A stretch of 37,419 nucleotides of DNA from UHGV virus genome UHGV-0125336. The stretch is one strand, 5' to 3'. The notes under the pieces are model-generated. The model saw only the letters and a list, made by a program, of their open reading frames with translations, was not told the origin of the DNA and made no database searches. The stretch's first letter is position 1. Each line of letters starts with the position of its first letter. Positions 33,698 through 37,419 of this stretch are shown one piece after another. A program made the translations under genes and the position numbers. The stretch comes from a virus.

Positions 33698-33739
33698 GCA
33701 ACTTAGAATAGCGGCAGCACCACGTTAAGGGAGGTCGCT

Positions 33740-34000
33740 ATGTTCCGTTGTCCGCTTTGTGGCGCATCTGCCCGTATCCGCACCAGTCGTTCGGAAAATG
33801 ATTCAAACACCGTACGGAAAAAATATTACCAGTGTAACAACCTGGAATGCGGCATAAGTTTCTCAACACTGGAAGCTTTCCATAAATTCACATCGAAACA
33901 CGCCCCCGGCGTTCACTCTTCAGAAGGTATCCCGTGGCATGAGTTGCCAGCTTCACACAGGGGAAACAATCAGATGAGTTTGCCTTTACCTCAGAATTAA
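33740..34000 (+). CDS. ogr: Ogr/Delta-family zinc-finger late-gene activator
   Basis: MFRCPLCG...YYQCNNLEC: a CxxC...CxxxxC zinc finger at the N-terminus as in P2 Ogr (MFHCPLC...YHQCQNVNC as recalled). Longer C-terminal tail than P2 Ogr. Confidence 0.75.
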   Translation: MFRCPLCGASARIRTSRSENDSNTVRKKYYQCNNLECGISFSTLEAFHKFTSKHAPGVHSSEGIPWHELPASHRGNNQMSLPLPQN

Positions 34001-34190
34001 CAGGCAGAATTGCCGGAGTAACAAAAAAGCGATAGATTACGCGCGGGTGCCTTTCGGCTGATGGTCGGAGGGAATACCCGAAGGCCAGATGTGGAAAGGC
34101 CCCGGAAAACATTTCTGTTTAACCGAGGCCCTAACCGTCTAACCTTAGCAAGTGATAGGTTAGCGCCTCCCTGAAAAAGGAGCAAGCGCT

Positions 34191-34331
34191 ATGTCGCAAA
34201 AATCGCTTACGGCCATCACGTTCTGCGTGACGGCAATCCTCATCATCTGGATGCTGCACGGTTCGCTGTGCGAAATACGGATGAGCTTCTGGGGAGCGGA
34301 GTTTGCGGCGTTCTTACAGTGTAAGCAGTAA
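34191..34331 (+). CDS. hok: Hok/Gef-family type I toxin (46 aa)
   Basis: MSQKSLTAITFCVTAILIIWMLHGSLCEIRMSFWGAEFAAFLQCKQ: one TM helix, then the SLCEI motif and an AAFL.CK C-terminus, closest to HokA as recalled. SD AAGGAG (34177-34182) sits in a hairpin. A GNRA-loop hairpin follows the stop (34341-34362). Confidence 0.7.
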   Translation: MSQKSLTAITFCVTAILIIWMLHGSLCEIRMSFWGAEFAAFLQCKQ

Positions 34332-34393
34332 GGAAACCGCGACGGGGGAGCAATCCCCCGTCAATCGGTTGCCAGGGTAAGGTCGATAAGGCA

Positions 34394-34404
34394 CCCTATC
34401 TCAC
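34394..34404. repeat. Left target-site duplication (CCCTATCTCAC)
   Basis: Perfect 11-bp direct repeat of 35890..35900, immediately outside the left inverted repeat. Confidence 0.6.
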
Positions 34405-34545
34405 CAATGCCGTTCAGTTAGTTAAGGAATTGAGGTTCGATAGCCCGAACCTCGCGCAGAGGCAATATGACCGAAAGCCTGATTCCTTAATGCCCAAGAT
34501 GAGTCTCTATTCATAAAAGCGCTTAACTACTCGACATTGGCGGTG
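34405..34545. repeat. Left terminal inverted repeat (about 140 bp)
   Basis: Contains nested hairpins (TTAAGGAAT...ATTCCTTAA and GAGGTTCG-ATAGCC-CGAACCTC). Inverse match to 35750..35889. Confidence 0.6.
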
Positions 34546-34740
34546 TATCCCCCGCATTGTCTGAATGCCGCCTCTTACCTTTCGCGGTCAACTGACGACT
34601 TCTAGTTCTAGAACGCCTTGATTTTTTGTACTTGTACATTGAAAAATAACCATAAATTGTTAGCCTGTGCAGTAGACTCAGTGGCGGTAACTGGTCAGCA
34701 TGAAGTGTAAAGTGAATAACGAAGCTCTAAAATTATAGGG

Positions 34741-35574
34741 ATGGTCATGAATAATAAGCTAAAGGTAATTGAGTTAAATAGTCTTGATCTGTTTCGTAAA
34801 GAATTACTAACTACTATAAAGCCAGAGAAAGTAGAGAAATTACTTAGATGGTATCTTCAATCATATGGCGGTGTTAATTTCAAGTTCGGTTATGACAGAC
34901 CAATTTTTAGAGCGCGAAAGTGCCCAAATGAATGCGGATATAATAACATCAGTGAGATATATCCCCCTCCACCAGAAAAATGTAAAATAGGCCGAATGAA
35001 TGATGATGGACAAGCTATCTTCTATGGCGCTTATAGTATCGGAACAGCTTTAGCCGAAATTAATGCAAAAGAAGGGGATTATGTTCACATAGCTCACTTT
35101 AAGATGCCGGAAAATTCAGAGTCTGGAATGCGATGTTTTGCTATCGGTGAGGTCTTTAATGTGTATCACGGTGTAAATACAATTTCAATTGAAGTGTTTA
35201 ATGAAATTCGCGACATCATTAGCAGAATTGGTAAGGACGACATCCGAGCTTTGCTATCATATTTGTATATGGATGCCCTTTCTGCTGAGTTGCTTAATAG
35301 TATCAATGCCCATGAGGTAAATTATATTTACTCAAGAATTTTTTGCCGTCTTCTTCTTGATAAATACCCTGATGTTGATGGTCTTATTTATCCTAGCGCT
35401 AAAATAAAAGGGGCCTCAAATATCGCTTTGCGCACAGAAACAGTTAAATCGAGAATGCATTTAGTTGCTAATCTTGTGTTTAAAGTAAATAAAATTTATC
35501 CATATGGAATAGTAGATTTCAGTATAGTAAAACAAGCCAAAGGACATACATCAGATGGGCGCATCGTTTGGTGA
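34741..35574 (+). CDS. RES-domain-like protein (putative NAD+-targeting toxin fold) with an N-terminal extension
   Basis: KIGRMNDDGQAIFYGAYSIGTALAEI fits the RES pattern (G-R-W/M-N..G...Y.A.S...A..E), and DGLIYPSAKIKGASNIAL fits the second conserved block. No adjacent Xre/antitoxin-like ORF. AT-rich. Confidence 0.5.
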   Translation: MVMNNKLKVIELNSLDLFRKELLTTIKPEKVEKLLRWYLQSYGGVNFKFGYDRPIFRARKCPNECGYNNISEIYPPPPEKCKIGRMNDDGQAIFYGAYSIGTALAEINAKEGDYVHIAHFKMPENSESGMRCFAIGEVFNVYHGVNTISIEVFNEIRDIISRIGKDDIRALLSYLYMDALSAELLNSINAHEVNYIYSRIFCRLLLDKYPDVDGLIYPSAKIKGASNIALRTETVKSRMHLVANLVFKVNKIYPYGIVDFSIVKQAKGHTSDGRIVW

Positions 35575-35749
35575 GCCAAACTTTTAGTTAGCTGATTGAA
35601 AAACCGATGCGTCAGTTTGCACTGCATGTGGTGTATGGGAAGCGCGGGCTTGTAGTGCAGGTCATTTCAGAAGAAGCTAACGAGAAAGCTTAGACATACT
35701 GTGACTACTAAACAAGCAGAAAGCCCGTGTTTATGGGGGGCAATCCACA

Positions 35750-35889
35750 CAACAGGCGATGTCGATTAGTTAATACACTTGTATGAATAGAGACTCATTT
35801 TTGTGCATTAAGGAATCAGGCTTTCAGTCATCTTGCCTCTGCGCGAGGTTCGGGCTATCGAACCTCAATTCCTTAACTGAACTACATTG
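35750..35889. repeat. Right terminal inverted repeat (about 140 bp)
   Basis: Reverse complement aligns with 34405..34545, with a 4-bp indel and scattered mismatches. Confidence 0.6.
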
Positions 35890-35900
35890 CCCTATCTCAC
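35890..35900. repeat. Right target-site duplication (CCCTATCTCAC)
   Basis: Perfect 11-bp direct repeat of 34394..34404, immediately outside the right inverted repeat. Confidence 0.6.
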
Positions 35901-36087
35901 AGCTCTAAATGCAAAAATCCCATGAAACTGTGGGTATTTCATTACACACTGACACTGCTCTACCTTTCTATATGTATCACTCTAAACCAGTTAATCAATT
36001 GGCACTTATCAACAACAAAAAATCTGATAAAATCAAAATGTTTTGTAACAAATTTCAGCTTGTAGTGTTCCAAAGGAGACGGATTAC

Positions 36088-36420
36088 ATGGCATTAATCA
36101 AATGTCCTGAATGCCAGAAAGAGGTCAGCGATTCAGCATTATGTTGCCCTGCTTGTGGTAAACAACTGAAAAAACTTAAGCGTTCATTTTTTGGAAAACT
36201 CATTAAATGGGCTTTTATATTTTTTAATATTTTTATGATCTATACACTTTTAGTTGGACTAGGAGGCGCTGATGAAATAATAAACAATACCACATCCGAT
36301 GCCGAAAAAGCTGGGGCAGTTATTGGTACGGGCTTAGGTTTAATTGCCATTGGAGGCTTATGGGTTATTGGCGATATAATTATCGGAATTTTAGTGTTTC
36401 TTACTAAACCAAAGGGATAA
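36088..36420 (+). CDS. Zinc-ribbon membrane protein, unknown function
   Basis: N-terminal CPEC...CPAC zinc ribbon followed by two hydrophobic helices. AAGGAG RBS. AT-rich. Confidence 0.6.
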   Translation: MALIKCPECQKEVSDSALCCPACGKQLKKLKRSFFGKLIKWAFIFFNIFMIYTLLVGLGGADEIINNTTSDAEKAGAVIGTGLGLIAIGGLWVIGDIIIGILVFLTKPKG

Positions 36421-36424
36421 TAAA

Positions 36425-37318
36425 ATGAAAAATATGATTTTTTCTATAGGTGCATTATTTATATCAATTAGTGTACTGCCTGTTCACGCAGCAACTGAAC
36501 ATAAGAATTTCAATGCAGTGCTCCAGTGCCGAGCGATAGAAAACAATAAAGACAGACTTTCTTGTTACGATAAGTCAATACAACCGACTCGAACGAAAGT
36601 TGCTGAAAAATTTGAAAGCAGGGATCAATGCCCTGATGAGAAAGATGATGACAAACGTTTATCTTGTTATGATCGTTTTTTTTCTCCAACATTTACTCCA
36701 TCTGTAAACTCAAAATCTAAAACGGAAAAGCTAGTAACAACAGAGGCTCAGCAACCAAATCTTTCTGAAATATCTAAATGCCGAGCAGAAAATGATAAAG
36801 AAGCCAGACTAAACTGCTACGATAAACTATTCCCACAGAATGAAGCTGTTCAATCTGAATCACAATTAGAGAAAGCCACAGATGCAGGAAAATGGCACAC
36901 GTCCATTACTACATCGCCAATTGATGATTCGAAAAATGTAATTTTATCGTTAGAAAGTGATGATTATATCAGAACTCCATTTGGAGAAGCTGTTACTCCC
37001 ACTCTGTTTATAGCTTGCCGAGAAAAGAAAACCGAAGTATTTCTTAGTTGGGATGTATATTTAGGCCTTGAACAAACCAGCATGCTGTATCGTCTTGATA
37101 AACAGAAAGCAGTTGAAAGAAACTGGCTAATATCTACAGATACAAAGGCTGTTTTTTATAAAGGTAATGATATTGATTTCATAAGAAAACTTGCCAACTC
37201 ACATAAAATGTACACAAAAATAACCCCCTATAATGAAAGCCCTGTAAGTGCAACTTTCAATTTAAGCGGCCTGTCAAATGCACTAAAACCGCTTCAAGAT
37301 GCTTGTAACTGGAAATAG
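36425..37318 (+). CDS. Secreted protein with three 20-aa Cys-pair repeats, unknown function
   Basis: Signal-peptide-like N-terminus (MKNMIFSIGALFISISVLPVHAA). Repeats LQCRAIENNKDRLSCYDK, DQCPDEKDDDKRLSCYDR, SKCRAENDKEARLNCYDK. Starts 4 nt after the upstream gene. Confidence 0.6.
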   Translation: MKNMIFSIGALFISISVLPVHAATEHKNFNAVLQCRAIENNKDRLSCYDKSIQPTRTKVAEKFESRDQCPDEKDDDKRLSCYDRFFSPTFTPSVNSKSKTEKLVTTEAQQPNLSEISKCRAENDKEARLNCYDKLFPQNEAVQSESQLEKATDAGKWHTSITTSPIDDSKNVILSLESDDYIRTPFGEAVTPTLFIACREKKTEVFLSWDVYLGLEQTSMLYRLDKQKAVERNWLISTDTKAVFYKGNDIDFIRKLANSHKMYTKITPYNESPVSATFNLSGLSNALKPLQDACNWK

Positions 37319-37336
37319 TATATACCTCCCCAATAT

Positions 37337-37378
37337 CAGATGACAAAACGCCCGTGAAAACGGGCGTTTTGTCATCTG
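37337..37378. terminator. Perfect 18-bp-stem palindrome, candidate bidirectional terminator
   Basis: CAGATGACAAAACGCCCG-TGAAAA-CGGGCGTTTTGTCATCTG, with A/T runs inside both arms. Lies between the converging plus-strand operon and the minus-strand partial ORF. Confidence 0.55.
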
Positions 37379-37419
37379 TAACTCGAAAATGTGGTCATTG
37401 CGTGGACATACGATGATAT
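37372..37419 (-). CDS. Partial ORF (C-terminal 15 codons); possibly the 3' end of a second integrase gene
   Basis: Minus-strand translation ...ISSYVHAMTTFSSYR* resembles the int C-terminus in this window (...VSVHAVSTGD*). DNA 37392-37409 matches 251-268 at 15 of 18 positions. Too short to be sure. Confidence 0.2.
   Translation of the reverse strand: MSSYVHAMTTFSSYR

Follow-up and report, generated by a model that had tools for sequence, protein, structure and literature searches.

The 37,419-nt stretch of DNA analyzed here (virus genome UHGV-0125336; hereafter the window) very probably carries, between ogr and attP, a complete hok/sok-type module that is accessory cargo of a P88-like (Xuanwuvirus, P2 family) prophage of E. 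coli. As a gene, this hok is already known: it is annotated in RefSeq, catalogued, and included in the toxicity tests of a preprint (bioRxiv 10.1101/2025.08.07.668861). We add the full anatomy of the module, the placement of sok, the boundaries of the prophage, the absence of mok in this branch, and a candidate mok-independent switch. The absence of mok is the only unusual feature of the locus, which is otherwise ordinary.

The hok gene, its peptide, and its prophage

The hok ORF lies at 34191–34331 on the plus strand, runs from ATG to TAA, and encodes a peptide of 46 amino acid residues (MSQKSLTAITFCVTAILIIWMLHGSLCEIRMSFWGAEFAAFLQCKQ). It is preceded by its own strong Shine-Dalgarno sequence (SD), AAGGAG, spaced 8 nt from the AUG. 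An earlier note on this DNA had assigned the ORF to the Hok family on account of its architecture, with an SLCEI motif and an AAFL-CK tail, and had held that a lack of Hok-family similarity would speak against this. Both motifs are present in the peptide (SLCEI at residues 25–29; tail AAFLQCK), and the family assignment was borne out by profile search. Pfam HOK_GEF (Hok/Gef, PF01848) matched the peptide with E = 4.1e-7 and 29.9 bits, above the curated gathering score of 22, with residues 7–44 aligned to profile positions 5–42 of 42. The peptide has the N-terminal hydrophobic helix and the conserved Cys, Thr, Leu-Cys-Glu, and Glu residues of the Hok/Gef family. When it was aligned with the R1 and K-12 Hoks, as the earlier note had proposed, C12, T14, and E28 were invariant, and L26, C27, and E37 fitted, as read by eye, the published logo, in which the conserved Cys, Thr, Leu-Cys-Glu, and Glu are positions 16, 18, 30–32, and 41 (Escalera-Maurer et al., bioRxiv 10.1101/2025.08.07.668861). 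In the same alignment, C44 occupies the position of a Tyr in R1 Hok. Both cysteines are hard-coded, as in HokA, so the TadA editing described for hokB (introduction of bioRxiv 10.1101/2025.08.07.668861) would not be needed.

The RefSeq protein WP_000078916.1, annotated as 'Hok/Gef family protein' (e.g., in strain WAT), is identical to this peptide. So is entry 72_1621 in Table S2 of Escalera-Maurer et al. 2026 (bioRxiv 10.1101/2025.08.07.668861), over all 46 residues, and the coding DNA of that entry is one synonymous base apart from hok of the window. Entry 72_1621 belongs to the high-abundance Hok 'cluster 72' and was cloned as LRP137 for an arabinose-induced toxicity assay; 42 of the 45 Hok homologues tested were toxic, and only 19_179, 60_1482, and 69_1540 were named as non-toxic (bioRxiv 10.1101/2025.08.07.668861). 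The toxicity of the exact peptide in E. coli is taken from this literature, where 72_1621 is in the tested set and absent from the named non-toxic ones. According to the same preprint, hok is enriched in prophages; its catalogue covers coding sequences only and says that Mok, Sok, and mRNA ends were not analyzed. Relative to its homologues, hok of the window had dN/dS values of 0.13–0.54, which indicates that selection acts on the Hok peptide.

Upstream, the neighbor of the module is the late-gene activator ogr (33740–34000, plus strand; Pfam Ogr_Delta, E = 1e-15; 'ogr/Delta-like zinc finger protein' in RefSeq), preceded by an ORF with the Phage_GPD baseplate-hub domain (Pfam). The earlier note was thus correct in placing the toxin immediately downstream of ogr. 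The consensus terminator scan found no terminator-like site on the plus strand between the ogr stop and hok, so late transcription could possibly read through into hok during lytic growth. The earlier note had also asked whether the locus lies in the prophage or in flanking host DNA, and comparison with strain WAT and with the record of phage P88_4B11 (Xuanwuvirus, Peduoviridae) places it inside the prophage, ~3 kb from the right end (attR). The 1 kb around the module (33700–34700) was 100% identical to many E. coli chromosomes, where the ORF is annotated as 'Hok/Gef family protein', and 99.7% identical to P88_4B11; ogr plus hok were 95–98% identical to P88 and other P2-like phages. The gene order in P88_4B11 is ogr, hok, two ORFs over an RES gene, a short ORF, a zinc-ribbon gene, a VasI/TagO-like gene, and the integrase. 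The window is the whole prophage, from the attL core through the base before attR, because its first 55 bp (attL core, 1–55) are repeated exactly in strain WAT directly after the window end (attR), and because the P88_4B11 record joins the last base of the window to its first base without a gap. Beyond the second 55-bp copy, strain WAT continues with host sequence upstream of flk. Strain 4/4 is another lysogen, and there no further phage gene separates hok from serS of the host.

Related modules were detected by blastn in 1750 of 5426 complete E. coli genomes (32%), with up to nine copies per genome. They are carried by P2-like phages, Stx phages, and IncI and IncF plasmids, and others adjoin the type B L31 gene; the lambdoid and Stx-phage copies sit after lom or gpJ. 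Decayed relatives also occur, with a frameshift in Stx2_8243 and a deletion in an E. albertii plasmid copy. At their ogr-attP junction, P88-like phages carry a probably complete hok/sok module as standard cargo, adjoining a variable region with genes for an RES-domain protein, a zinc-ribbon membrane protein, and a VasI/TagO-like protein. PADLOC gave no match for Hok or the neighboring cargo proteins. Cargo of this kind at this site bears on how temperate phages stabilize themselves or time lysis, and its candidate roles in the phage are prophage addiction, exclusion of other phages, and help in lysis as reported for hokW-sokW.

The hok mRNA and its predicted antisense RNA

The functional unit measures ~390 bp, from the hok promoter at 34010 to the end of fbi at 34396. 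The extent given in the earlier note, 34100–34365, falls within this unit and is too small. The boundaries were determined by aligning the locus with copies from P88, IncF and IncI plasmids, and Stx phages, and with copies adjacent to the type B L31 gene. Similarity among these copies starts at a promoter-like pair of hexamers (34010) and stops at GGCACCC (34390–34396), and the flanks are unrelated; similarity to the Stx-phage and plasmid copies covers 34041–34404 and then ends. Since the similarity is bounded by unrelated flanks, the unit has, by sequence comparison, the character of a mobile module of ~390 bp. The putative hok promoter (34010–34038, plus strand) consists of a −35 hexamer TTGCCG (34010–34015), a 17-nt spacer, and a −10 hexamer TAGATT (34033–34038). 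It is weak, with 8 of 12 consensus positions, and the hexamers are kept in homologues (TTGCCC, TTGAAA, TTGCGC, and TTGCGG; TAAATT, TAGAAT, and TACATT), where the sequences further upstream are unrelated. The consensus promoter scan reported no promoter, neither the hok nor the sok candidate. The corresponding terminator scan found no intrinsic terminator on the plus strand after fbi, and its sole terminator-like match was the GNRA hairpin described below, read on the minus strand.

The Rfam model RF01794 matched 34045–34204 on the plus strand over its full length (1–157; E = 1.2e-7), with a score of 43.6 bits that does not reach the gathering threshold of 59. On K-12, this model scored 118 bits for hokC, 110 bits for hokB, and 70 bits for hokA; there the match is on the hok strand and extends from the start of the mRNA to the ATG of hok, and the annotated sokC and sokB lie inside the match on the opposite strand. 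A reading of the plus-strand 'sok' match as a sense-strand Sok was rejected, since on K-12 the model covers the hok-sense leader. The match represents the hok leader and thereby places the 5′ end of the mRNA at G34045. The hok mRNA unit would then comprise 352 nt (34045–34396, plus strand), beginning with GGGUGCC and ending with the GGCACCC of fbi, as delimited by the Rfam match, the similarity span, and the fold. For both hok and sok, we infer the transcription starts and the RNA 3′ ends, and likewise the 3′ trimming of the mRNA.

The 356 nt from 34045 to 34400 folded with a minimum free energy (MFE) of −159.5 kcal/mol (z = −6.85), with the first 15 nt paired to the 3′ end. A consensus fold of 10 loci comprised 93 pairs, 10 of them with compensatory changes, and retained this end pairing, the SD hairpin, a start-region helix, and the 3′ hairpin. 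The 5′-end element tac (34045–34059) pairs in the full-length RNA with the complementary element fbi (GGUCGAUAAGGCACCC; 34381–34396). The energy of the tac-fbi duplex was −27.2 kcal/mol in the window and −24.6 to −31.7 kcal/mol in 14 loci, 4–6 standard deviations (sd) better than shuffled 3′ segments (average ~−13.5 kcal/mol, sd ~3). Duplex energies were used here because the fixed-column covariation count over 10 loci gave only one-sided (G-U) changes for tac-fbi. The fbi sequence varies in at least six ways among the loci, and its pairing with tac is kept. Long-range pairing of tac with fbi is thus found in the MFE fold, in the consensus fold, and in the duplex energies compared with shuffles. 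The alternative partner of tac, 34094–34103, lies in a 5′ hairpin: the 5′ 60 nt alone folded with −35.1 kcal/mol (z = −5.1), with tac paired to GAAAGGC-CCC. An alternative tac partner of this sort is known from R1 (PMC9841398) and matches the 5′ hairpin of the window locus.

The hok SD is sequestered in a hairpin at 34161–34191 (−13.0 kcal/mol, z = −2.7), in which the anti-SD CUCC (34167–34170) pairs with GGAG of the SD (34179–34182). The first base of the AUG is included as well, and the hairpin belongs to the consensus fold of 10 homologues, so the folds predict a closed hok SD in the inactive mRNA. A downstream complementary box, GUUUGCGGCGU (34301–34311), pairs with the start region AUGUCGCAAA (34191–34200); this helix corresponds to consensus columns 151–160 with 263–272, and its pairs are kept in all 10 sequences. 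After the stop codon, a hairpin with the GNRA loop GCAA spans 34341–34362 (−19.7 kcal/mol, z = −5.0). In homologues, compensatory changes affect two base pairs of this hairpin (G-C to A-U, A-U to C-G), and the loop is of GNRA type in 7 of the 10 aligned loci (GCAA, GUAA, and GAAA). By analogy with plasmid R1, this hairpin is presumed to be the stop point for 3′ trimming. The earlier note had described a buried SD and a GNRA-loop hairpin after the stop and had read both as signs of hok-type mRNA regulation. Both structures reappeared in the folds of the window and its homologues, and the computed end pairing of tac with fbi adds to this reading.

The earlier note had further expected a sok-type antisense RNA within 34000–34190. 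A candidate can now be placed at ~34149–34088 on the minus strand by position and sequence homology to the annotated K-12 SokB and SokC, with which it aligns. The predicted Sok RNA measures ~60 nt (34088–34149, both ends approximate) and would be complementary to these positions of the hok leader. It consists of a 13-nt single-stranded 5′ tail and a terminator-like hairpin (−24.1 kcal/mol, z = −3.6), and this shape, a free 5′ tail followed by a long hairpin, agrees with the published shape of Sok. On the minus strand of K-12 sokB, TTGCCG is followed by 17 nt, TAAGAT, 7 nt, and then GCUAGGUUCAUUCGUUGGCCUCGG...CGGGGCCUUCGUCUUU; the minus strand of the window has TTGCTC (34185–34180), 17 nt, TAACCT (34162–34157), 7 nt, and then GCUAAGGUUAGACGGUUAGGGCCUCGG...CCGGGGCCUUUCCACAUC. 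The predicted Sok starts at the same distance from the −10 hexamer as the annotated K-12 SokB and SokC, and it has the same GGCCUCGG...CGGGGCC hairpin. The putative sok promoter formed by these hexamers (34157–34185, minus strand) overlaps the hok SD and is weak (6 of 12 consensus matches). Its −10 hexamer is invariant in 13 loci, where the −35 hexamer is TTGCTC, TTGACT, or TTGCCT. However, since the −10 hexamer also forms part of a conserved mRNA helix, its invariance is no proof of a promoter. Of the minus-strand promoter and terminator that the earlier note had suggested looking for, a putative promoter was found by SokB/SokC homology and not by the consensus scan, and the terminator-like hairpin is followed by a poor U-tract (UUUCCACAUC).

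On the mRNA, the Sok-target hairpin (34098–34130; GGCCCCGG...CCGAGGCC) holds a relic mok SD, GAGG (34125–34128). The target loop of the window contains UUAG, which fits the YUNR U-turn motif. By eye, this motif is inconsistent across homologues, and it was not used.

Absence of mok and a candidate mok-independent switch

A mok reading frame, which the earlier note had expected within 34000–34190, is not there. Downstream of its leader SD, K-12 hokB has GAGGCCAACGA-AUG-AACCUAGCA, with the AUG starting MokB, whereas the window reads GAGGCCCUAACCG-UCU-AACCUUAGCA at the same place when aligned by eye; the mokB AUG is UCU here. In the window, all three frames are closed between GAGG and the hok ATG, and no ATG, GTG, TTG, or near-cognate codon was seen by eye within reach of GAGG. 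An in-frame TAG (34161–34163) sits in an invariant block, and no leader or mok frame is conserved across 13 related loci. Two substitutes were considered and rejected. A 37-codon ORF at 34061–34174 lies inside the tac helix, has no SD, and is not conserved; it reads MAGG-stop in the Stx-phage copies and has 24–31 codons in others. Fewer than half of the 13 loci have a TTG or GTG start ~46 nt before hok; these starts have no SD and are absent from the window. The searchable literature yielded no description of a mok-less hok locus, only unrelated papers; Faridani 2006 does not mention cluster 72, and the Pas sRNA preprint holds nothing specific.

We tentatively propose, with rather less than even confidence, that the cluster-72 modules (this prophage, the lom-adjacent hok of Stx phages, and the IncI and IncF copies) form a natural mok-less branch, in which Sok would control hok directly through a three-part RNA switch and not by blocking a leader ORF. 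The first steps are modeled on plasmid R1. The full-length hok mRNA would be stable, would not be translated, and would not bind Sok. It would lose fbi as its 3′ end is slowly trimmed up to the GNRA hairpin, and tac would then fold onto GAAAGGCCCC (34094–34103). Unstable Sok would silence the mRNA activated in this way and expose it to RNase III; once sok transcription stops, Hok would be made and the inner membrane would be depolarized. The subsequent steps come from our computations, and the switch is proposed because mok is absent. The released GAGGC (34125–34129), which contains the relic mok SD, would pair with GCCUC (34165–34169) of the anti-SD strand and thereby open the hok SD AAGGAG for direct translation. 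Binding of Sok would cover GAGGC and restore the sequestration of the SD.

When the RNA was ended at the GNRA hairpin, its MFE structure had tac paired with GAAAGGCCCC and GAGGC paired with GCCUC, and the SD hairpin was dissolved. The GAGGC:GCCUC pairing occurred in the MFE structure of the 3′-truncated RNA in 9 of the 13 loci. Covariation gives this pairing no support because GAGGC and GCCUC are both nearly invariant. The accessibility of the ribosome binding site (RBS), expressed as the mean energy needed to open it in 13 loci, was 12.6 kcal/mol for the full-length RNA and 8.2 kcal/mol for the 3′-truncated RNA. It was 12.3 kcal/mol when the Sok target of the truncated RNA was masked, 11.5 kcal/mol when GAGGC alone was masked, and 11.3 kcal/mol when tac was masked. 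Masking only the target of the Sok 5′ tail gave 8.0 kcal/mol, and two controls with masked coding segments of equal length gave 7.7 and 8.2 kcal/mol. These values suggest a coherent model in which Sok would lock the SD by covering the anti-anti-SD. The mok-less branch is widespread and lacks a reading frame that the R1 paradigm regards as indispensable for translating hok. Should the branch be active, the textbook R1 mechanism is not general, and the relic mok SD would have been re-used as an element of an RNA switch.

We also weighed the view that the module is a silent relic, in which the loss of the mok start uncoupled hok from translation and left harmless baggage. The closed frames before hok would agree with this, and in R1 the translation of hok depends strictly on that of mok as far as the hok SD (PMC9841398), so a mok-less locus could be poorly translated. 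Chromosomal hokA, hokB, and hokC of K-12 were judged inactive in earlier work, as cited in bioRxiv 10.1101/2025.08.07.668861, and the frameshifted Stx2_8243 copy and the deleted E. albertii plasmid copy demonstrate that such modules decay. In contrast, the hok ORF of the window is intact, its dN/dS values are those given above, and its own SD is strong and well spaced from the AUG. Moreover, 13–14 loci with identities down to ~75% have retained the two putative promoters and tac/fbi together with the hairpins at the SD and at the 3′ end, and the way in which fbi changes and still pairs points to ongoing selection on regulation. The module is also found on active phages and conjugative plasmids, apart from its frequency in E. 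coli genomes. We therefore regard a silent relic as unlikely.

Even less probable, and in our judgment very much so, is a classical mok-dependent locus in which mok is read from a non-canonical start or the 37-codon ORF stands in for it. The ATG of this ORF (34061) is invariant in an 11-locus alignment, and in the window the ORF stops 16 nt before the hok ATG, just ahead of the hok SD; in a few relatives, the TTG or GTG ~46 nt before hok stands in an open frame. These points are outweighed by the features for which both substitutes were rejected, by the lack of any start or near-cognate codon seen within reach of GAGG, and by the TAG fixed in the invariant block. Finally, the view that there is no gene and that the features arose by chance in the 3′ region of ogr (e.g., as a terminator), to which an ORF of just 46 codons in an intergenic-looking stretch beside att-proximal cargo might lend itself, has next to no probability given the Pfam match above threshold, the conservation of the unit in unrelated contexts (after lom/gpJ, on IncI/IncF plasmids, and beside the type B L31 gene), and the toxicity of the peptide according to bioRxiv 10.1101/2025.08.07.668861.

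Comparison with known hok/sok modules and other type I systems

The candidate mok-less module resembles the paradigm of type I toxin-antitoxin systems, hok/sok (parB) of plasmid R1, in many respects (R1 RNA features from PMC9841398). Both encode a Hok with conserved Cys, Thr, and Leu-Cys-Glu. In both mRNAs, the ends pair through tac/fbi, tac takes part in a 5′ hairpin, the hok SD is sequestered, and a 3′ stem-loop precedes fbi. As in R1, the putative sok promoter overlaps the hok SD, and the predicted Sok consists of a free 5′ tail and a hairpin. The main difference is mok, which is absent here, whereas R1 needs a 70-codon mok that starts 58 nt before hok. The leader is also shorter (146 nt versus 173 nt in R1), as is the peptide (46 versus 52 residues, with 30% identity). 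Further differences from R1 are Cys44 in place of Tyr, no terminator after fbi, and a phage instead of a plasmid as carrier.

Among the K-12 loci, the annotated Sok that comes closest to the predicted one is SokB, which has equal promoter spacing and shares with it the RNA start GCUA(A)GG and the GGCCUCGG...CGGGGCC hairpin. The two loci differ at the AUG of mokB, which is UCU in the window. The nearest named peptide is HokA, with 41% identity and the best NCBIfam model. However, the HokA model NF007290 scored 34 bits against an equivalog cut-off of 89, so by profile score the 46-residue Hok is not a HokA orthologue. The K-12 hokA leader is also shorter, ~108 nt compared with 146 nt here.

In tisB/istR-1 and zorO/orzO, the antitoxin pairs far upstream of the toxin RBS and acts through mRNA structure or ribosome access, not by covering the SD. 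These systems, which have no coupled leader ORF, resemble the proposed switch in mechanism only, and their sequences and peptides have no kinship with the window locus. The zorO 5′ UTR is described in PMC5397157.

The best functional precedent for a prophage hok is hokW-sokW of the Stx2 prophage Sp5/933W, a phage-borne and experimentally shown type I pair (Takada et al. 2021, PMC8621323). Upon induction of Sp5, Hok is produced and about twice as much phage is released (PMC8621323). The hokW gene belongs to a different Hok cluster: its peptide has 51 residues, starts with MKQQKAM (primer YO-357), and is HokD-like, and its leader is GGGUGCUUGAGG (primers in PMC8621323). The Stx-phage relative of the window locus is a second hok, downstream of lom. 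Phage records use 'MokW-like host killing' as a generic label, and equating the window locus with hokW-sokW on account of 'MokW-like' was rejected, as the hokW primers and the 51-residue MKQQKAM peptide belong to another hok gene of these Stx phages. The closest published counterpart is entry 72_1621, from which the peptide of the window does not differ at all and to whose catalogue the regulatory anatomy given here is an addition.

Limits of the prophage

The window covers a single prophage from end to end, no more and no less. Its positions 1–55 are a 55-bp att core (AAATCCTTTTATATC...AAGGATTTT), and a second copy directly follows base 37419 in E. coli strain WAT, which carries the prophage; the host flk gene starts ~160 bp past the window end in this strain. 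The tyrosine integrase is encoded at 240–1259 on the minus strand. A perfect 14-bp stem (GACAAAACGCCCGU/ACGGGCGUUUUGUC, loop GAAA) that resembles a terminator separates the last cargo gene from attR, at 37342–37373. A weak Rfam match to Brucella BSnc120 in this place (E = 0.26) is most likely due to chance.

Cargo between hok and attR

Downstream of hok (34191–34331) lies a 1.57-kb cassette (34405–35972) that is missing in the P2-like element of plasmid pETEC-2265. This element is elsewhere collinear with the prophage, and its zinc-ribbon gene is joined straight to hok. The cassette encodes a 277-aa protein with a RES domain (34741–35574; Pfam RES, E = 4.5e-12) and contains two pairs of inverted repeats, one of 78 nt with 96% complementarity (34420–34497/35801–35878) and a second at 34496–34519/35778–35801. 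Within 34405–35972, no partner ORF of at least 60 aa (e.g., for an Xre-type antitoxin) was found for the RES protein, and PADLOC gave no match to this cassette.

Two more cargo genes are located ahead of attR, at 36088–37318. One encodes a zinc-ribbon protein of 110 aa whose C-terminal half is hydrophobic. The product of the other is a 297-aa VasI/TagO-like protein that begins like a signal peptide and contains three RLSCYD/RLNCYD repeats; it is named TagO in RefSeq and matched the type VI secretion-associated VasI model TIGR03360 with E = 2e-22, under the cut-off. Such a protein is an odd passenger in a P2-like phage.

Divergent and decayed copies of the cluster-72 hok

The most divergent copies of the hok in cluster-72, the catalogue group that includes the peptide of the window, have ~75% identity and were found in E. 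coli E23, O157:H7 TT12B and 2009C_3612 (loci L016–L018). The neighbour of hok in these loci, ~300 bp ahead of its ATG, is a gene for a type B ribosomal protein L31, with TraT/TraG remnants around it. This setting suggests an integrated conjugative element. Two other copies are decayed: in Stx2_8243 (L007), a one-base insertion causes a frameshift at the Hok C-terminus, and the copy on E. albertii plasmid pEA5_1 (L013) has an internal deletion and a module without its 3′ end.

Annotation of sok and of the second hok in Stx phages

The Rfam model RF01794 ("sok antitoxin") matched the hok-sense strand, both in the window (34045–34204) and in three other loci (L008, 402–554; L009, 567–718; L015, 2216–2355). 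The match extends from the start of the mRNA up to the ATG of hok and so covers its leader, whereas the actual Sok, a predicted RNA in the window, is encoded within this interval on the other strand. A sok annotated straight from RF01794 would be placed on the wrong strand and be ~100 nt too long.

In many Stx records, the cluster-72 hok is left without annotation, and the label "MokW-like host killing", which phage records give to the Hok coding sequence, is a misnomer. There are two hok loci in Stx phages, unrelated to each other: the published hokW (HokD-like, 51 aa) and the cluster-72 hok, which is located directly downstream of lom (L004, 1654–1794; L005, 452–592; and L006).
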